In this document: in pieces, positions 5,080 through 15,303 of the stretch | Numbering within the stretch: position 1 is the first letter of the stretch | Layout: every line of letters starts with the position of its first letter | NCBI GenBank assembly: GCA_005223125.1 | Contig: NJBH01000013.1 | Span: 32,239-96,238, forward strand | Direction of reading: 5' to 3' | Origin: Promethearchaeota archaeon Loki_b32 | Lineage (GTDB): Archaea; Asgardarchaeota; Lokiarchaeia; Sigyniarchaeales; SOKP01 | Length of the DNA: 64,000 nucleotides | The notes under the pieces: model-generated | Told to the model about the DNA's origin: nothing | Seen by the model: only the letters and a program-made list of their open reading frames with translations | Databases searched by the model: none | Program-made: the position numbers and the translations under genes

Positions 5080-5373
5080 ATGGACTTCTTTCTTAGCAAC
5101 TTAAAAGAAACACTTGAAGCGATAAATAAGTTAATAGATAATAATGTAACTATTGTAAACGCTAAAAGAATTAGAAGATGTAATCATATTAAATCTTCAA
5201 ATCGCTCAAAGATCAATTTCATTTGGAGATCTCTAAGATACCTTGAAGATGAAGGAATATTAACATTAAACGGGATAACTAACCCTAGGACTTATAAGAT
5301 AATAACAAATGAAAAAATTGATGTTGATAAAGTACTTTCTCAAATTGAGAAAAACAAGAAAAATAAGTCTTAG
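5080..5373 (+). CDS. Small basic protein, possible winged-helix
   Basis: 97 aa. A strong SD (AAGGTGGAG) lies upstream. The segment RSLRYLEDEGILTLNG resembles a wHTH recognition helix and wing. The TAG stop overlaps the convergent gene by 4 nt. Confidence 0.5.
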   Translation: MDFFLSNLKETLEAINKLIDNNVTIVNAKRIRRCNHIKSSNRSKINFIWRSLRYLEDEGILTLNGITNPRTYKIITNEKIDVDKVLSQIEKNKKNKS

Positions 5374-8102
5374 ATTAAATCTAACTCTATTAATAACTCA
5401 TTTAATTTGTTTTTTGTTTCCTTATCTTTCGGATTGTTAATCAACCGTTTTTGATAAAAAATTATATTGGGATATTTCAGCTCTAATTTATTAAATAGCT
5501 TTATCCATCTGTTAAAGTTATTGAGTAATTCGTTTACTTCAGGGTCTTCTTCTAAAGACATAATTTCTTCTTTCTCTTCTTTTGAAAGGCTAGTTTTATA
5601 TTTTTTTACACTAATGCCTTGATCATTTAACAACTTCTTATTAGTTCTTCTGATAAATCCTTCCAAACCGCTTCTCCAATGAACATACTTCTCATTAATT
5701 TTATCTATAGTCTCTTGAATAATTTTTATCTCTTGCGGATAAATTGTTTCTTGTTGCTTAGATAATATCTTCTTTATTTTTTGAAATTCTGTTTCAAACT
5801 TCTGAGTGTAATTGTTAACCATTTTCTCAAATTCAAATAACACAGTATTATAATCTTTAGCAAATATTACATCATCACTAGAAAAAGTTAATGTTTCTTC
5901 TTCAAATGAACCTTTTAATCTCCTTTTTTGTATTAAATCCTCAAAAATTTCTCTTAATAAACCAATCTCAGTTTGATTTAATTCCTTGCCATAAAATAAA
6001 TCATAGAAAGAAAATAGAAAACTACTTTCCAACATCTGGTTCCTAATTCCGCTTTCTGTATAAAAGAGAACTTCTCCTGCATTTTGATGAAAAATACCCT
6101 TTACTTTACCGTCAGCTATTAAATCATGAATTAGATCTTCTATTAAACTTGAAGTGATATCATATGTTCCTAAAGAGATATAATCATTAGATTTAGATTT
6201 GTCAATTAGCATAAATTTAATATCATTCTTTGCATCTTCTATTTTTTGCGGGCTAAAAATTAGTAAATCTGCTTTTTTAAAATAAATAAGGCCTAATTCA
6301 TCAATAAATTTCAAAAAAATGTCTAGTTCCATCCCAGTTTTTTCAAGATATTCACTAATCTTTAGTTGATCTTTTTGTTTTATTTCTTCTGCAATTAACT
6401 GTAAATTTTCATCGATTTTTGATAAAATATGATTTCTATCAATATTAAGTTGCTTGGAGATCTCATTAATTTGTTTTAATCTTTCGGTTTCATCTGTAAT
6501 TGAACTTATTTTATCAATTTTATCTTTTAAATACTTTGAGTAATAGAATATATTTTTTTGATTATTCCAAATTCCGCTCCTATAGTCTACAAATTGGTCA
6601 AATACATCTAAGAGTAGAAGTTGTCCTATATTTAATTTATCTGAAATTCTAGATATGTCAAAATAACCGACAATTTTAGAGTTTTGGACTTTATTTGTAA
6701 TTTTTTGTACTCCTAAGTTTGTTAACCACTGTGTACCTTTACGAAACTTAGATAAGTATTCTCTTGGCATATTTTTCACTAATCTTATAAAATCTTCATC
6801 CAATAGAATCTGACGATAAGATTTAAGATCTATAACACTTCCTTTTGCAGCTTCAGAATTAAGTTGATCTTGAATTTTTTTTAATGAGATGTATGTTTCT
6901 TGATCTTTTCGCTTTAAAAAAGTTATTTTCATAGATTTAGAGATACCCTTCATAATTCTATCAATAAAATTTTGAGGAAGGAAGTTATAACTGGTTAACT
7001 CGATAGAACCATTTACTTGTAAATCCTCTATTAATTTTGATTTTATATAGACATAGGGGTAAAAAAATCCAATATCCGAATAATACCCCTCAATTATTTT
7101 TAGATTATTTAGCGTTTTTATAAATAGCTTTAATTCTGAATCATCATCAATAACTTGAGAAAATGTATTATAAATTTTCTTATCTGAGATTTTCTTATCT
7201 TGTTTAAAAAATGTTTTTAGTTTATCTTTTTCTAATTCATAGATATATATTACATTTTCTTTGGTTTTTATATAGAAATAAATCTTCTTTTCCTTAAGAT
7301 TTGATTTAGCAAAGTTCTTTAAGTGCTCTTTGAGATCCACATCTAACTTCTTCCTTATTAGTGAAAAATTGTGTTTTTTCATCAAAAAAAGGTTTTCTAT
7401 TAGGGTTATAACATCTTTACTTTCCAAGTTCTCCAATCCAATTTCATTAAGCAATGGAAAAAACTTCTTTAAAAGTTCTATTAATCTAATGAAAATTTTA
7501 GAGGATTTTTTATCTTCAAATGAGGAAATTAATGATTTTGAAATATCTCTAAAATAAAATAAATGATCAAAATCTAAATCAACACAGGAATCAAGGAAAT
7601 TTAGCAGGGAAATGATATTATCTGTTTTATTTTCTGTTAGAAGACTTTCCAAAATGATTTCTAAATCAGGATTTAATAAATTTGGATTAATTTTAATTAA
7701 TTCTTGTAAAAAGTAATGTACATTATTCCTAACATCTTCAGATTTATCTTTAAGAAACTTTACAAACTCATGAGAATAGCTTTCAACGTATTTTGAATTT
7801 GCAAGCATCGCAAATCCAATGATAATTATTGAATTAATTTTTAACTTTACATCTTCAGATTGAAGAAAATTCTCAATTTTTTGTATTAATCCTTCAGAAA
7901 TAAGTTCGATTCTATTTTCTGCCAAAATTGATAAAATATAGGTAATTGGAACATTATATTTTTTTTCATCCAATAAAAATTTAAATTCATTAATGAGTTT
8001 TGAAATTTTATCAATTTTATTTTTACTTAAAAGCTTGTTTAGTTTATCTACTTTTTCAAGAATTAAGCTATCTTTAAAATCCTCAAGATTAAGCATATTC
8101 AA
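5370..8102 (-). CDS. Large (910 aa) protein: N-terminal HEAT/ARM-like repeats followed by an array of winged-helix-like modules; function unknown
   Basis: Long uninterrupted ORF with typical K/E/I/L-rich coding composition. The N-terminal ~170 aa are helical repeats containing SEDVRNNV-type HEAT turns. They are followed by repeated G-x-[IV]-x-[LI]...F modules. It starts 13 nt downstream of the HAD gene. Confidence 0.8.
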   Translation of the reverse strand: MNMLNLEDFKDSLILEKVDKLNKLLSKNKIDKISKLINEFKFLLDEKKYNVPITYILSILAENRIELISEGLIQKIENFLQSEDVKLKINSIIIIGFAMLANSKYVESYSHEFVKFLKDKSEDVRNNVHYFLQELIKINPNLLNPDLEIILESLLTENKTDNIISLLNFLDSCVDLDFDHLFYFRDISKSLISSFEDKKSSKIFIRLIELLKKFFPLLNEIGLENLESKDVITLIENLFLMKKHNFSLIRKKLDVDLKEHLKNFAKSNLKEKKIYFYIKTKENVIYIYELEKDKLKTFFKQDKKISDKKIYNTFSQVIDDDSELKLFIKTLNNLKIIEGYYSDIGFFYPYVYIKSKLIEDLQVNGSIELTSYNFLPQNFIDRIMKGISKSMKITFLKRKDQETYISLKKIQDQLNSEAAKGSVIDLKSYRQILLDEDFIRLVKNMPREYLSKFRKGTQWLTNLGVQKITNKVQNSKIVGYFDISRISDKLNIGQLLLLDVFDQFVDYRSGIWNNQKNIFYYSKYLKDKIDKISSITDETERLKQINEISKQLNIDRNHILSKIDENLQLIAEEIKQKDQLKISEYLEKTGMELDIFLKFIDELGLIYFKKADLLIFSPQKIEDAKNDIKFMLIDKSKSNDYISLGTYDITSSLIEDLIHDLIADGKVKGIFHQNAGEVLFYTESGIRNQMLESSFLFSFYDLFYGKELNQTEIGLLREIFEDLIQKRRLKGSFEEETLTFSSDDVIFAKDYNTVLFEFEKMVNNYTQKFETEFQKIKKILSKQQETIYPQEIKIIQETIDKINEKYVHWRSGLEGFIRRTNKKLLNDQGISVKKYKTSLSKEEKEEIMSLEEDPEVNELLNNFNRWIKLFNKLELKYPNIIFYQKRLINNPKDKETKNKLNELLIELDLI

Positions 8103-10663: not shown

Positions 10664-11413
10664 TTAGTAAAAGGAAGTCATAGATTGAATCATTTTATAA
10701 GAAAAAGCTATTTGCGGATTACCATTATCGCTAATCCCCATATGGCCCGGAAGAAGATATTTTACATCTAAATTGTTCACATATTTAATAGAATTAATTA
10801 GGTCGCTTAATGAACCTCCAGGAAAATCATATCTTCCAAAACTGCCTCCAGTAAAAACTAAATCTCCTGGGATTAATATTTTTTTGTTAGAATCGTAATA
10901 ACAGATTGAGCCTAAGGAATGGCCTGGTGTATAATGGATTTGAAACGTAAATTCAGAAAATACTTTAATCTCTTCAGAATTAGCGAGGTCAATCACACTT
11001 AAAGGGAAAATCTCAATTCCAAACATTTCAAGATTTATTCCTAGAATATCTGGGCAAATTTGAGATTTATTACCCGCTTTTAAGATGCTAGCCGTTTCAC
11101 CATATGCATAAATTTCTGGAGGACCATCGTTTAATGTTTTTATTAATGGATATAAACCCAAAACATGATCAACATGCTCATGAGTTAAAAATACTTTAGT
11201 GATATTGCGGTATTCAAGATTATATTTCTCCATGCCTTTGAATAAACCTTTAAGAGAAATACCATTACCGGTATCAAATAGAGCAAGTTCTTCAGTTTTA
11301 GGATCTTTAATTACATATTGATTACAGTCTAACATTTGGTTTTCTGAAAAGTAATAAAGATTTTTTACAGCTTCTTTGCCCTTTTTCTCAGAATCCCCAC
11401 TAGAAAAAAACAT
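10664..11413 (-). CDS. MBL-fold metallo-hydrolase
   Basis: Contains the HxHxDH motif (THEHVDHVLG) and downstream His/Asp ligands (TPGHS, GD, PGH). Confidence 0.85.
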   Translation of the reverse strand: MFFSSGDSEKKGKEAVKNLYYFSENQMLDCNQYVIKDPKTEELALFDTGNGISLKGLFKGMEKYNLEYRNITKVFLTHEHVDHVLGLYPLIKTLNDGPPEIYAYGETASILKAGNKSQICPDILGINLEMFGIEIFPLSVIDLANSEEIKVFSEFTFQIHYTPGHSLGSICYYDSNKKILIPGDLVFTGGSFGRYDFPGGSLSDLINSIKYVNNLDVKYLLPGHMGISDNGNPQIAFSYKMIQSMTSFY

Positions 11414-11522
11414 GATGAATATTACAATTAAATTTATTTAAAAGATAAAATAAGCTTAACTTTAATGTTTTTCTTTTACAAACTATAAAACTAATAATAA
11501 ACAAAAAATAAATTATAGTAAT

Positions 11523-11903
11523 ATGGAAAATCAACCCAATATTGAAGAATTAAAATCTAAAATAAATTATGGAATAAAATTTTGGTTAGAATTTGAGGGT
11601 AAGAGTATATTGGGCTCTGGTTGGGCAGAATTATTAAAAAGCATTGAAAAAAACAAAGAAGGATCATTAACTCAAGCAGCTAAAGAGTGTAATTATTCTT
11701 ATAAATACGCATGGAATATTTTAAAAAGAATCGAGAAAAGAACGGGTAATCCTGTGGTAATTACTGGCAAAGGAGGTCGCGGTGGGGGTGGTTGGGTAAG
11801 ATTGAATAATTGGGGGAAATTCCTCTTAGATATCTATAGAGAATATCTAAACGAAATTAGAAAAATCGAAGAAAAACTTAAAGAAACCATAAAGATCGAC
11901 TAA
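11523..11903 (+). CDS. ModE-N-terminal-like winged HTH protein
   Basis: SLTQAAKECNYSYKYAWNILKRIEKRTGNPVVITGKGGRGGGG matches the ModE/LysR-type HTH followed by its glycine-rich tail. There is no TOBE domain. Confidence 0.7.
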   Translation: MENQPNIEELKSKINYGIKFWLEFEGKSILGSGWAELLKSIEKNKEGSLTQAAKECNYSYKYAWNILKRIEKRTGNPVVITGKGGRGGGGWVRLNNWGKFLLDIYREYLNEIRKIEEKLKETIKID

Positions 11904-11994
11904 TAAATATATTTTAATTTCAATATTGATTATTTTCAGTAAGGAAATTAGAAATTATGTTTTTTCGAAATTATTTTTAGATTAAGGTAATATC

Positions 11995-12423
11995 ATGGAA
12001 GACTGCTTAAAAGAATTGAGTGATATAAAAGTATCAAGCATGATGATTAAAGACCCCCTCTATACATTTCCAAATGAAAAAATTAGTGCCACTGAACTTC
12101 TTATGATAAGGAAAAATATAGGTGGACTTCCTGTTGTGAAAGATCGTAAGAATAGATTATTAATTGGTATTATAACTCAAAGAGATATACGTCTTGCTAG
12201 ATTTGCTATGAGTCTTGATTCACCCAATACAACTGTTAAGGATTTAATGACTTTAGAACCCTTTGTTGTACGAAAAGATGACACTTTGAAGTATGTATTA
12301 GAGGTAATGTTTGGGAAAAAAATAGAACGACTACCTGTAGTGAATGAAAATAATGAACTTATTGGTCTAGTTATGCAAAATGAGATTCTACAAAAACTTC
12401 TTGAATATATGAAGAAAGATTGA
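11995..12423 (+). CDS. CBS-pair domain protein
   Basis: Two CBS repeats are present (GGLPVVKD...GIITQRDI and ERLPVVNENNELIGLV). Confidence 0.85.
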   Translation: MEDCLKELSDIKVSSMMIKDPLYTFPNEKISATELLMIRKNIGGLPVVKDRKNRLLIGIITQRDIRLARFAMSLDSPNTTVKDLMTLEPFVVRKDDTLKYVLEVMFGKKIERLPVVNENNELIGLVMQNEILQKLLEYMKKD

Positions 12424-12526
12424 AAATTTAATTAAAAGTAATAAATTTATAAAGTTTACAAAAAAATATTAATTTTAGATTATTAATAAGAAAAACAATA
12501 TTAAAAAACTAAATTATTGATAGAAA

Positions 12527-14050
12527 ATGGCACTGCCTTTACCTGGAACACCAATTATAATTGATATTGGCTCAGCATATGTGAAGATTGGATTTGCCGG
12601 AGAACCAGGACCTAGATTTGTGTTTCCTTGTATAACAGGAACAGAAAAATATAAATCTGTGATGGTTGACATAAGCGCTAGAAGTATTTACGTTGGAAAC
12701 GACGTATCTCGCATGCGTGGAGTTCTTAAAATTAAACATCCTCTAAATCGTGGAGAAATCATTGATTGGGACAGTTATTATGAGATCTTAAACTATATAT
12801 TTTATTCATTACTTAGAATTGAAAATCTTTCACTTTATCCAGTATTCTATTGCGAACCTCCTTTTATGCATAGAGATACTAAAGAATTTATTGCCAGAGT
12901 TTTTTTTGAAACTCATCACGTCCGAAGTCTAGTAATGATGTCAACACCTTTACTTTCCCTATTTAGTGTTGGATTGACATCAGGATTGGTAATTGAAAGC
13001 GGAGATGGCTTGTCATGGATTGTACCAATAATTAACGGTCAAATAGTTCACCATGCAGTCCAGAAAATTCCAATTGCAGGAATAGATGTTAATCAGAATT
13101 TAAAAGGTCTTTTAATGAGAGAAGGAGCAAGTATTTCTTCTAGTGCTGCGGATGAGATTATCCAAGATATTAAAGAAAAGAATTGTTATTTTGTATTGGA
13201 TCCAAATAAACCACCAAGTACAGGAGAAATATTTAGTTTTCCAATGCCAGATGGATCAACCATTAGTGTTCCAACTTACATTCTCTATCAAGCTCCAGAA
13301 GTATTATTTAATCCTGGCATGTTAGGTTATGGAAACGTTATGAATCTACCTCAAGCAGTACTTACTTGTTTGAGAGCCATTGATAATCACTATTGGCATG
13401 ATCTTTTATCACATATTGTATTTTCGGGAGGGAATCTTTCATATAGTGGCTTTAAAGAACGTTTCGAATTTGAATTAGACCAGATTCTTCCTCAATTAGG
13501 TTCAATCCCTAAACCAGTCGCCCCTCTTTCTGCAGTTAAAAGTGAATTAATCAAGCTTCAATCTGTTGAAATATCAAAGAAAAAAGAGGATACTTGCCCT
13601 CATTGTGGGACTAATGTTAATCTTGGTGATGGGAAAAAATTATGTCCCTCATGTGGGGGTGTACTTGTTTTACCGGAGATAAAAATTGGAGCACTAGGCC
13701 AAAGCAGTCAAAGTAAACAAATTAAGGTAAAATGTCCACATTGTAAAAAGAAGGTCGCCGATACAGATTCACTTTTTTGTCCGTATTGTGGAAAACCCAT
13801 AGAATCTTTAGAAGCAGCTGCTCTACCCAAAGCAGTAATAGAAAAATCACCCGCTCAAGAATTTTCTGAATTCATGGAATCTGCTAGTAATGTTCTCAAA
13901 TTTTTTATTCCTGACAATCTTCAATTTACTATTTTTAATGGAGCTGCCATTTTAGGGAGTTTGCCTAGCTTTCAGCAATTATTTATAACATCTGAACAAT
14001 TTCAAACAAACAAGGATCTATTATACAGAGACATTAGTGAGATTCTTTAA
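12527..14050 (+). CDS. Actin-family protein (Asgard actin/Arp-like) with ~110-aa double zinc-ribbon insertion
   Basis: The N-terminus IIIDIGSAYVKIGFAGEPGPRFVFP matches the actin phosphate-1 loop. Also present are GLVIESGDG (phosphate 2), VFSGGN (adenosine motif) and a C-terminal FNGAAILGSLPSFQQLFITSEQF. Two CxxC-x11/12-CxxC units sit between the last two motifs. Confidence 0.85.
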   Translation: MALPLPGTPIIIDIGSAYVKIGFAGEPGPRFVFPCITGTEKYKSVMVDISARSIYVGNDVSRMRGVLKIKHPLNRGEIIDWDSYYEILNYIFYSLLRIENLSLYPVFYCEPPFMHRDTKEFIARVFFETHHVRSLVMMSTPLLSLFSVGLTSGLVIESGDGLSWIVPIINGQIVHHAVQKIPIAGIDVNQNLKGLLMREGASISSSAADEIIQDIKEKNCYFVLDPNKPPSTGEIFSFPMPDGSTISVPTYILYQAPEVLFNPGMLGYGNVMNLPQAVLTCLRAIDNHYWHDLLSHIVFSGGNLSYSGFKERFEFELDQILPQLGSIPKPVAPLSAVKSELIKLQSVEISKKKEDTCPHCGTNVNLGDGKKLCPSCGGVLVLPEIKIGALGQSSQSKQIKVKCPHCKKKVADTDSLFCPYCGKPIESLEAAALPKAVIEKSPAQEFSEFMESASNVLKFFIPDNLQFTIFNGAAILGSLPSFQQLFITSEQFQTNKDLLYRDISEIL

Positions 14051-14205
14051 ATAATAAAAAAAAACTTTTCCTTTTAATTGAATTTCATACTAGATTATAA
14101 AAAATTGAAAAATTACTTCATGTACTTTAGCCATATAGTTAATTTTTAATTTCAAGATAGATTTAAGAAATTAAATTTTAAATTATCAGAATTAGGTATT
14201 TTTAT

Positions 14206-15303
14206 TTGAAGTACAGATATCGGAATTTAATTGTTGTAGTATTTTTGTTGTTAATAACAATAAATGCAATTCCGAGTGCGTTAGGAAAAAATAGACGGGC
14301 TTATTTAACTAGTTTTATATTAAATAATGAAATTATAGGGAACGGTTTTTCCAATGCTATTTATAGCGACGATACCGTTTCTTTTGAAGCAACAGCTTAT
14401 GCATTAGAAATTTTAGATGATTATGGAATTAATCCGCATGAAATTGAAGCTCTTCAAAATAATCTAGAAAATAATGTAGACGAGATGTTTAATAATGATG
14501 AAGTAGTTCTATACGATTTATTTTTTTTAATGAAATCATTAAACATTTTACAGCATGAAGATATAGATTTAGAAAATAGAATTTATAAATATTTAAATGA
14601 TACTGAACAGATAGGAGGTGGGTTCTCTTTCAAAAACTCCACGAGTTCAGCAAATTTAGCTTCTACATATTATGTTATTCAACTTTATTTATTGATTGAT
14701 GAGCCAATTAATAATCTTACAGCTCATAAAAATTGGATTCTTTCATGCAATAATTCTGATGGGGGGTACGGAGGAAGTCAAGGTCTTTCCTCAACTTTAA
14801 CCGATACTTTTTTTGTTGTTTCGCTTTTAGATGAATTATGGGGAATTGACGCTCTAGTTGATATGAACAAGACATTACATTATCTTAAATCATTTTATGT
14901 TGATGATTCAGCAGATCTTAATAGTTTTGGAGGATATTTACCTGATGAAATTGCACAATATGCATTATTAAGTAGTACTTTTTTTTGTGTTAAATCAATT
15001 TCACTAATTGATCCAGATCTTAGCGAATTAAATAGTGCTTCCACAATGGTTTGGGTATTAGCGCGCCAATATTTCGAAGATGGAGGATTTGCAGAGAACT
15101 CTGAAGGATATGAACAAAAAACATCTTCTGTCATCTCATCATATTATGGATTCGAAACTTTAAGAGTATTTAATGCCCTATCAAGTTTAGCAGGAGAAAT
15201 TTGGATGGTGGAATTTAATTTTTGGATATTAGGGATAGTCTTAATGTCTATAGGAATTATTATTGCTTTAATAGTATTTTTATGGCGAAAAAGAAGAATA
15301 TAA
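14206..15303 (+). CDS. Secreted, C-terminally anchored protein with prenyltransferase/terpene-cyclase-like alpha-alpha toroid repeats
   Basis: TTG start preceded by AGGT. It has an N-terminal signal-like helix and repeated GG[FY] motifs (IGGGFSF, SDGGYGG, FGGYLP, EDGGFAE). A C-terminal TM helix is followed by RKRRI. Confidence 0.7.
   Translation: MKYRYRNLIVVVFLLLITINAIPSALGKNRRAYLTSFILNNEIIGNGFSNAIYSDDTVSFEATAYALEILDDYGINPHEIEALQNNLENNVDEMFNNDEVVLYDLFFLMKSLNILQHEDIDLENRIYKYLNDTEQIGGGFSFKNSTSSANLASTYYVIQLYLLIDEPINNLTAHKNWILSCNNSDGGYGGSQGLSSTLTDTFFVVSLLDELWGIDALVDMNKTLHYLKSFYVDDSADLNSFGGYLPDEIAQYALLSSTFFCVKSISLIDPDLSELNSASTMVWVLARQYFEDGGFAENSEGYEQKTSSVISSYYGFETLRVFNALSSLAGEIWMVEFNFWILGIVLMSIGIIIALIVFLWRKRRI

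Follow-up and report, generated by a model that had tools for sequence, protein, structure and literature searches.

A predicted zinc-ribbon arm nested in the actin fold of an Asgard archaeal family of actin-related proteins

An actin-related protein gene with a large insert

We analyzed a 64,000-nt window of DNA from Promethearchaeota archaeon Loki_b32 (contig NJBH01000013.1, positions 32,239 to 96,238 of the forward strand). The window holds one complete gene for an actin-related protein (Arp) whose actin core is interrupted by a long insert with two predicted zinc ribbons. We refer to this protein and its relatives as ZnR-Arps. Coordinates of the gene, its parts and the neighboring genes of interest are collected in Table 1. 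No other actin-family gene occurs in the 64 kb, nor were tRNA genes or Rfam matches at the gathering threshold found there.

Table 1. Features of the ZnR-Arp locus in the window and in related loci (prefix L)
Feature	Position	Strand	Basis
ZnR-Arp gene, complete (507 aa plus stop)	12527..14050	+	Open reading frame (ORF) list, Pfam Actin, homologs
Actin core, N-terminal part, residues 1-327 (subdomains 1, 2, 4 and most of 3)	12527..13507	+	Alignments
Insert, ~130 residues (328-457), in the loop at actin 322-327 (alphaK/beta15, subdomain 3)	13508..13897	+	phmmer and MAFFT gap
Predicted helix at insert start, residues 334-351, LSAVKSELIKLQSVEISK	13526..13579	+	DSSP helix 334-347 in AlphaFold2 model, at low confidence
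Predicted zinc ribbon 1, C357-x2-C360-x12-C373-x2-C376	13595..13654	+	Pfam, Cys conservation
'LPEIKIG' segment after ribbon 1, residues 381-387	13667..13687	+	Conservation
Variable linker, probably flexible, residues 388-400	13688..13726	+	Conservation, model confidence (pLDDT) below 50
Predicted zinc ribbon 2, C403-x2-C406-x11-C418-x2-C421	13733..13789	+	Pfam Zn_ribbon_3, residues 400-425
Acidic motif at insert end, residues 441-452, PAQEFSEFMESA	13847..13882	+	Conservation, charge
Actin core, C-terminal part, residues 458-507 (strand beta15 'LKFFIP' and C-terminal helices, subdomains 3 and 1)	13898..14047	+	
Toroid protein gene, 365 aa, prenyltransferase-type alpha/alpha-toroid	14206..15303	+	Pfam Prenyltrans, E=1.2e-15
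ModE-N-type winged-helix (HTH) gene, stand-alone, 126 aa, GGRGGGG motif	11523..11903	+	TIGR00637, Pfam HTH_1
ZnR-Arp gene of MK-D1 (P0282)	L082:6001-7674		
ZnR-Arp gene of L. ossiferum (P0305)	L081:6001-7500		
Toroid gene in other loci	L081:7600-8748, L082:7791-8939, L087:6583-7743		
HTH gene in other loci	L081:5523-5909, L082:5581-5952, L084:4465-4794		

The window protein matched the Pfam Actin model PF00022 at E=2.8e-63 and 214 bits (cut-off 27), split in two stretches. With phmmer against PDB sequences, its residues 6-327 and 458-495 aligned to contiguous actin positions. The top match was HC1 actin (PDB 9wc4; 2.2e-69), in which chain residues 29-354 and 355-392 pair with these two segments, and eukaryotic actins followed at ~1e-61. 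The N-terminal core holds both phosphate loops and a conserved D-loop (KYKSVMVD). Identity across the core was 31% to alpha-actin, 27% to Arp2 and 23% to Arp3; sampled ordinary short actins are 55-75% identical to alpha-actin. The rabbit alpha-actin, Arp2 and Arp3 reference sequences were confirmed as full-length matches to PDB chains (1k8k chains B and A for Arp2 and Arp3, respectively). No NCBIfam model fitted the window protein, with crenactin at 15.6 bits against a cut-off of 630 and MamK at 15.2 against 400. Pfam MreB_Mbl gave no match at E<=1, and no transmembrane segment was found in the protein.

Composition and conservation of the insert

Aligned with MAFFT to rabbit alpha-actin, the core breaks after P322 and before K326-K328. 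Plain actins (P0315, P0316, P0137, P0404 and P0379) have zero residues at this site. An earlier note, made from the DNA alone, had proposed an actin-family protein interrupted at 13490-13900 by an insertion that canonical actins lack. The Pfam score and a structure model with a TM-score of ~0.9 bear out the family assignment, both the phmmer and the MAFFT gap place the insertion where claimed, and the interval brackets it. Its length had been put at ~110 residues; the alignments give ~130 (residues ~328-457). The two C-x2-C-x11/12-C-x2-C motifs that had been described were recovered with spacings of x12 and x11, and Pfam ribbon models exceeded their gathering cut-offs. Zn_ribbon_3 (PF13248) scored 44.6 bits (cut-off 27), and DZR (PF12773) scored 31.6 bits over residues 357-422 (cut-off 27.3).

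All eight cysteines are invariant in 23 orthologs with identity down to 62%, so the note's caution that they might vary among orthologs did not apply. They remain at least 90% conserved in a 130-sequence alignment reaching down to ~35% identity. Among 166 family proteins, 157 carry two C4 motifs, nine carry one and none carries zero. Judged from these alignments, the eight-cysteine pattern is far beyond chance. Ribbon 1 was found in every examined member, and the acidic motif closing the insert likewise in every aligned member. Ribbon 2, ~26 residues away, has a separate evolutionary history. It is present in the clades of the window protein, P0122 and MK-D1, and is missing as a whole unit, not eroded, from the L. 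ossiferum and Sigyn sub-clades.

Conservation is uneven along the insert. In the window clade, the mean top-residue frequency is 0.72-0.82 for the ribbons and 'LPEIKI', close to the 0.84 of the actin core, and 0.36-0.46 for the linkers, with the lowest value at residues 388-400. The ribbons are conserved outside the cysteines as well, and the initial helix is moderately conserved. P383 and E384 of the 'LPEIKIG' segment are invariant in this clade, and I385 is at least 90% conserved family-wide. Within the acidic motif, conservation of E445 reaches at least 90%, and F446 does not vary in the window clade; its Sigyn counterpart reads 'EAEEFxDPD'. This pattern indicates that the predicted zinc-ribbon modules are themselves under selection.

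The net charge of the ribbons is 0 and +3, and that of residues 425-457 is -4. Overall the insert is lysine-rich, with 18 Lys plus Arg and 14 Asp plus Glu. An amphipathic membrane helix at residues 334-351 was considered and ruled out, its hydrophobic moment falling below the shuffle mean. PDB sequence matches to the insert were all non-significant (best E=0.17). The weak similarities in PDB and Pfam were to L37Ae, YacG, NOB1, TFIIB and RNA polymerase subunits.

An Asgard-specific family

A homolog search covering 5.8 billion proteins returned 308 homologs at E<=1e-10. The best 120 are 62-92% identical to the window protein, measure 502-510 aa apart from two shorter fragments, and carry both Actin and zinc-ribbon Pfam domains. 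Members were found in over 400 protein clusters and in at least 125 genomes of different species, chiefly Lokiarchaeia, with a further branch from Sigynarchaeia. Among one-genome-per-species contigs, 125 loci encode a relative. The best 80 of these loci cover residues 1-507 at 60-87% identity, and almost all lie in metagenome-assembled genomes (MAGs) of Promethearchaeota (Lokiarchaeia). A HMMER scan of 1.84 billion cluster representatives added a few divergent insert-bearing relatives (38-48% identity), below which scores drop to ordinary actins (~33-35% identity). Profile searches started from the divergent relatives recovered members from Promethearchaeum syntrophicum MK-D1 (P0282, 557 aa) and 'Ca. 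Lokiarchaeum ossiferum' (P0305, 499 aa; UYP44711.1), together with an intermediate clade. They also recovered a clade of ~480-496 aa proteins, two of which are labelled Sigynarchaeota / Ca. Sigynarchaeum springense.

A neighbor-joining (NJ) tree was built from 370 core columns with the insert excluded, using 100 bootstraps and Arp2 and Arp3 as the two Arp references. All insert-bearing proteins formed one clade in 100/100 bootstraps, with actin, Arp2 and Arp3 outside. A grouping of ZnR-Arps with Arp2/Arp3 was recovered in 0/100, a limited test given the two references. The Sigyn type (100/100) branches as sister group of the Lokiarchaeial types. Because the L. ossiferum type falls inside the two-ribbon MK-D1 clade, we take ribbon 2 to have been lost secondarily on that branch. 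The insert with ribbon 1 probably had a single origin, with ribbon 2 gained later. On this tree, ZnR-Arps are a monophyletic Asgard-specific Arp family, distinct from lokiactin and from eukaryotic Arp2/Arp3. The insert had been flagged as unusual in the window protein; it proves not to be peculiar to one genome and is instead the hallmark of a large Asgard family, in which ribbon 2 is dispensable in two sub-clades.

The members from the two cultured organisms fall in the same clade as the window protein (100/100) and carry an insert in the same loop, with the same toroid gene downstream and the same HTH gene upstream. They are only 35-40% identical to the window protein. P0282 of MK-D1 has both ribbons and, in addition, a basic segment, 'DKLDRKEKKLLKKT', and an acidic one; P0305 of L. 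ossiferum has lost ribbon 2. Inserts of the MK-D1 / L. ossiferum clade share a conserved basic stretch, [DK]KL[DS]RKEKK[LI][LI]KK[TV], followed by an acidic stretch, which resembles the LKKT element of WH2/thymosin proteins. A WH2/thymosin reading of 'KKLLKKT' was rejected after no Pfam WH2 or Thymosin match appeared at E<=10 in P0282, P0305, P0126, P0276 or P0293, a search in which HMMER filters may miss very weak matches. The window protein lacks the 'KKLLKKT' segment.

Several family members carry unexpected taxon labels. Contig L067 (DATKTW010000100.1), assigned to 'Candidatus Nanopelagicaceae bacterium', has a ZnR-Arp at 64% identity. Copies with 72-85% identity occur in MAGs assigned to Hod-, Hermod-, Odin- and Thorarchaeota (L005, L008, L011, L037, L059 and others; JBHL*). 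These contigs look mis-binned or mislabelled Lokiarchaeial, and the family's taxon labels are unreliable at face value. A partial protein, P0136, from a contig named 'Firmicutes bacterium HGW-Firmicutes-12' has an Actin domain with 48% identity to the P0122 branch and also matches the tRNA_anti-type OB-fold Pfam models PF01336 and PF13742. Contamination by an Asgard contig, or a fusion called in error, is the probable cause.

Nucleotide site

Residues of the nucleotide-binding scaffold are retained throughout the family. In actin numbering, D11, K18, G156, G158, E214, G301 and G302 are invariant in 142/142 family sequences, and K213 is Lys in 141 of them. The catalytic center is altered. Gln occurs at Q137 in 0/142 sequences, with Thr, Ser or Ala in its place. 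His occurs at H161 in 13/142, the remainder being mostly Trp, Thr or Phe, with Trp invariant in the window clade. D154 is replaced by Glu in almost all members. The window protein has T140, E157 and W164 at the positions of Q137, D154 and H161, respectively. The claim that all core actin motifs are present thus holds for the nucleotide-binding scaffold and fails for these three catalytic positions. In actin, Q137 and H161 position the attacking water for ATP hydrolysis. Because the Gln is always and the His mostly replaced, we infer that ZnR-Arps bind ATP and hydrolyze it slowly or not at all.

Filament-contact residues are partly kept. D-loop M44 is retained in 132/142 members. The D-loop hydrophobics V45, M46 and V47 and most target-cleft residues are also kept, which suggests that at least one actin-type longitudinal contact may still be used. 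R290, a longitudinal-contact residue in actin, is replaced by Trp in most members.

Structure model and position of the arm

An AlphaFold2 model of the window protein was computed with the 130-sequence alignment; an earlier run with 23 close homologs had a predicted local distance difference test score (pLDDT) of 49 and was unusable. The model reached a mean pLDDT of 80.7 and a predicted TM-score of 0.72. The core scored mostly >90, with its C-terminal part at 87-95. Ribbon 1 scored ~67-74 and ribbon 2 ~70, and residues 336-351, 383-400 and 427-449 fell below 50. Foldseek against the PDB listed conventional actins first (E ~1e-34, TM-score 0.87-0.91 normalized to the target). The four-subdomain actin fold is predicted to be complete, with the ribbons as two small folded modules riding on a flexible tether.

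The insert loop connects the helix that ends near actin residue 320 with the strand at 328-332. By alignment the insert projects from subdomain 3, through the loop after P322; the earlier note had placed it on the surface of subdomain 3/1. Actin residues 322-325 reportedly contribute to the longitudinal contact between subdomains 3 and 4 of F-actin in the Holmes 1990 model. K326 and K328 lie on the outer F-actin surface and contact tropomyosin; the title of PDB entry 9zbp, in the Foldseek list, likewise ties K326/328 to tropomyosin. From these positions, the arm would sit on the barbed-end or outer side of subdomain 3.

Gene neighborhood

The ZnR-Arp gene is preceded, in order, by genes for a HAD hydrolase, two unknown proteins, a metallo-beta-lactamase fold protein, the ModE-N-type helix-turn-helix (HTH) protein and a CBS-pair protein. 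It is followed by genes for the toroid protein, FolD, an unknown protein and a DRG-type GTPase. This order is retained in 56-77 of 80 clade loci. The toroid gene lies directly downstream of the Arp gene in 77 of the 80. The two genes are likewise directly adjacent, within differing outer flanks, in seven divergent lineages, among them L. ossiferum, MK-D1, Sigynarchaeum and three deep branches of Lokiarchaeia.

The toroid protein is weakly similar to farnesyltransferase-beta (E=3e-7). Hydropathy indicates an N-terminal signal-like segment, a C-terminal transmembrane helix and a polybasic end, which reads W-R-[KR]-R-R-[ILV]-COOH in 79/81 loci. The protein should be almost wholly extracellular, with a predicted cytoplasmic tail of 5-6 residues. 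Ahead of the transmembrane helix lies the conserved motif E-x-x-W-x-[LVF]-E-x-[NS]-[GP]-W. This three-part C-terminal layout resembles archaeosortase/exosortase sorting signals, but the motif is neither PGF nor PEP. The tail as a specific docking motif was considered and dropped, being a generic polybasic end that provides no evidence alone.

The HTH protein matched NCBIfam TIGR00637 at E=8e-17, below the model cut-off. Its gene is upstream of the Arp gene in 71/80 loci, and directly upstream in all Lokiarchaeial branches (L081, L082, L084-L086) at 42-50% identity. Its product, of ~110-160 aa and with GG-x-GGGG invariant, shows higher conservation than the Arp. Loci of the window clade have the CBS-pair gene interposed between the two, and in Sigynarchaeum the HTH gene is not upstream of the Arp gene. 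No iterated centromere-like repeats were found, just short two-copy matches in 11350-12600. Farther upstream, a 910-aa ORF at 5370..8102 (- strand) has weak, sub-threshold Pfam matches only, to Cnd1 (HEAT-like repeats) and, at residues ~523-788, to an intein splicing domain. It may be an intein-containing protein, and it is conserved beside the cluster in 46/80 loci.

Transcription

The gene is transcribed in relatives. Metatranscriptome contigs from four marine-sediment and vent sets, 90-98% identical to the window, cover the Arp gene including its insert (12402..14071). The HTH and CBS genes were not covered, and the toroid and FolD genes were represented by short contigs only, a comparison in which contig depth is a poor expression measure and DNA carry-over is possible. 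Coverage of the Arp gene apart from its upstream neighbors hints at a promoter of its own. An AT-rich, TATA-like 'AAATTTATAAAG' is located at 12443-12454, ~75 nt upstream of the ATG. A scan for bacterial-type promoters and terminators gave counts equal to those in shuffled sequence, by a method not applicable to archaea. In L. ossiferum, all four actin homologs are transcribed, with lokiactin several-fold above the others, including UYP44711.1 (PMC9834061). The published reverse-transcription quantitative PCR (RT-qPCR) primers for UYP44711.1 match the P0305 gene, the forward primer exactly and the reverse primer with one mismatch.

Comparison with known actins and Arps

Lokiactin and HC1 actin share the fold and host lineage of the window protein. 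HC1 actin, which is lokiactin-type, has no insert, its positions 354 and 355 being contiguous. In contrast, the window protein has the 130-aa insert, replacements of the catalytic Gln and His, and a place in a clade separate from actin-like sequences.

Arp2 and Arp3 are interrupted at the same alphaK/beta15 loop, by +11 aa and ~+16 aa, respectively, in our alignment. These short inserts (11-16 aa) contain no cysteines or zinc ribbons and have no sequence similarity to that of ZnR-Arps. The comparison qualifies the suggestion that the insert sets the protein apart from known Arps: its zinc ribbons do, whereas its loop is an insertion hot-spot shared with Arp2 and Arp3. Arp3 inserts have complex-specific roles according to earlier work summarized in PMC4947185. 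Bovine and human Arp2 and Arp3 retain the Gln and His aligned with actin Q137 and H161, and ZnR-Arps do not retain the Gln. No ARPC-like genes occur in the Arp gene neighborhood, and no search aimed at the ARPC1-5 partners of the seven-subunit complex was made beyond it.

Arp5 and Arp8 of INO80 offer a parallel in principle. In both, the actin fold does not form a dynamic polymer and a large insertion serves as the binding arm. Their insertions differ from that of ZnR-Arps in site and sequence and contain no zinc ribbons, and we know of no HSA-helix partner or remodeller in Asgard archaea. The ribbon models DZR and zinc_ribbon_2/3 describe generic small modules, mostly of obscure function and usually at protein termini. 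Those of the window protein are, unlike the usual DZR, nested within a loop of the actin fold.

The family defined by this insert is apparently undescribed. A literature search with incomplete journal coverage turned up no account of Asgard actins or Arps with zinc ribbons, and the term 'Zn-ribbon' occurs once in the Liu et al. preprint, in an unrelated context. The earlier note knew of no described Asgard Arp with such an insert. This stands for the insert itself and not for the proteins, as UYP44711.1 has been placed among Asgard and eukaryotic ARPs and its transcript assayed by RT-qPCR, with insert and ribbons unmentioned (PMC9834061). Public databases list members under the generic names 'zinc ribbon domain-containing protein' or 'actin-related protein'.

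A proposed tethered adaptor and its alternatives

The earlier note had suggested that the insert could mediate filament bundling, nucleic acid binding or partner binding. We favor a reading of ZnR-Arps, at about even confidence, as ATP-bound, poorly hydrolyzing structural or adaptor Arps whose tethered zinc-ribbon arm recruits a partner. An ATP-loaded core with slow or no hydrolysis would serve a structural or adaptor role and not that of a dynamic polymer. The conserved D-loop and hydrophobic cleft would dock this core onto lokiactin or onto itself, and the arm would act as a tethered binding module that recruits the partner. Our best guess is that this partner is in the membrane or cell envelope rather than nucleic acid, because the gene for the toroid membrane protein is linked to that of the Arp in every lineage sampled. 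From gene linkage alone, we propose the toroid protein as a functional partner of the ZnR-Arp.

A more specific version, which we consider quite unlikely, is an ancient two-gene module of ZnR-Arp and toroid protein through which the actin cytoskeleton of Asgard archaea would be tied to the cell envelope. The Arp core would dock on lokiactin filaments, and the ribbon and acidic arm would capture the basic W-R-[KR]-R-R-[ILV] tail, or a lipid or adaptor located there. If true, the module would correspond, in a prokaryote, to the cortex-to-membrane linkers of eukaryotes, and it would be a candidate organizer of Lokiarchaeial protrusions.

Several points weigh against the adaptor reading and its envelope partner. 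A tail of 5-6 residues makes direct contact with a cytoplasmic Arp not obviously feasible. The Arp-toroid adjacency may be inherited synteny; the housekeeping gene FolD lies close by as well, and no profilin, gelsolin or other cytoskeletal regulator or partner was found among the neighbor genes. Replacement of Q137 and H161 is no proof of lost hydrolysis. A bulky insert adjoining actin 322-325 could block filament contacts, and the placement of the ribbons relative to the core is not reliable in the model. ATP binding, zinc binding, polymerization and partner binding are, for every member, properties that we infer.

An unlikely alternative is that the ribbons bind DNA or RNA, in an Arp that is nuclear-Arp-like or part of a type II (ParM-like) segregation system with the HTH protein as adaptor. 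Zinc ribbons commonly contact nucleic acids, eukaryotic Arp5 and Arp8 contact DNA or nucleosomes via their insertions, and the insert of the window protein is lysine-rich and weakly similar to ribosomal, transcription and related zinc ribbons such as L37Ae and TFIIB. The small DNA-binding-type gene that outconserves the Arp is upstream in all Lokiarchaeial clades. However, the near-neutral ribbons and acidic insert end argue weakly against nucleic acid binding, and none of the PDB matches to the insert, at E>=0.17, is significant. Further points against this alternative are the lack of centromere-like repeats around the HTH and Arp genes, the CBS gene interposed in the window clade and the Sigynarchaeum locus, where the HTH gene is not upstream. 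The protein is also nearer actin than ParM, MamK or MreB, which score far under their cut-offs. We consider it rather unlikely that ZnR-Arps form a second, self-polymerizing filament system cross-linked or bundled by surface zinc ribbons. The retained D-loop hydrophobics and target cleft would allow polymerization, and the insert adjoins the tropomyosin-contacting K326/K328 surface. Arp2 and Arp3, which template filament growth at their barbed ends, tolerate inserts in the same loop. That every member has lost the catalytic Gln speaks against a dynamic polymer, and the Trp at R290 in most members also counts against the filament reading. In L. ossiferum, moreover, the transcript is several-fold below that of lokiactin, to which the filaments there are attributed (PMC9834061).

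The arm could also fold back onto its own barbed-end groove or nucleotide cleft as a zinc- or redox-sensitive autoinhibitor with no external partner, which we regard as very unlikely. It leaves the barbed-end side of subdomain 3 on long flexible linkers, and the conserved acidic 'EEF' motif comes immediately before the core resumes. The Arp3 C-terminal tail sets a precedent, filling the barbed-end groove and keeping the complex inactive (PMC4947185). Against this, no confident docking of the ribbons is seen in the model (pLDDT ~70, disordered linkers). The conservation of non-cysteine ribbon positions and the modular gain and loss of ribbon 2 fit a docking module, as in the adaptor reading, better than a plug. 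An artefact is excluded, be it misassembly, ORF fusion or cysteines spaced this way by chance: the same architecture recurs across hundreds of independent assemblies, among them the closed genomes of two cultured organisms, the cysteines are invariant and transcripts are seen.

Significance for Asgard actin biology

Asgard Arps are cited as evidence for a regulated actin cytoskeleton predating eukaryotes, and we know of no non-lokiactin Asgard 'ARP' with an established function. The ZnR-Arp family is delimited by a clear synapomorphy, the nested zinc-ribbon arm, in a loop that Arp2 and Arp3 also elaborate. It joins an intact ATP pocket and an altered catalytic center to a strictly conserved gene partner for a membrane-anchored protein. 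Both cultured Lokiarchaeia have a member, and antibodies, primers and cryo-electron tomography exist for L. ossiferum, making the role of an Asgard ARP directly testable. The natural one-ribbon and two-ribbon variants are ready comparison constructs. Should the arm connect filaments with the envelope or with DNA, archaea would have evolved insertion-based Arp specialization independently of eukaryotes.

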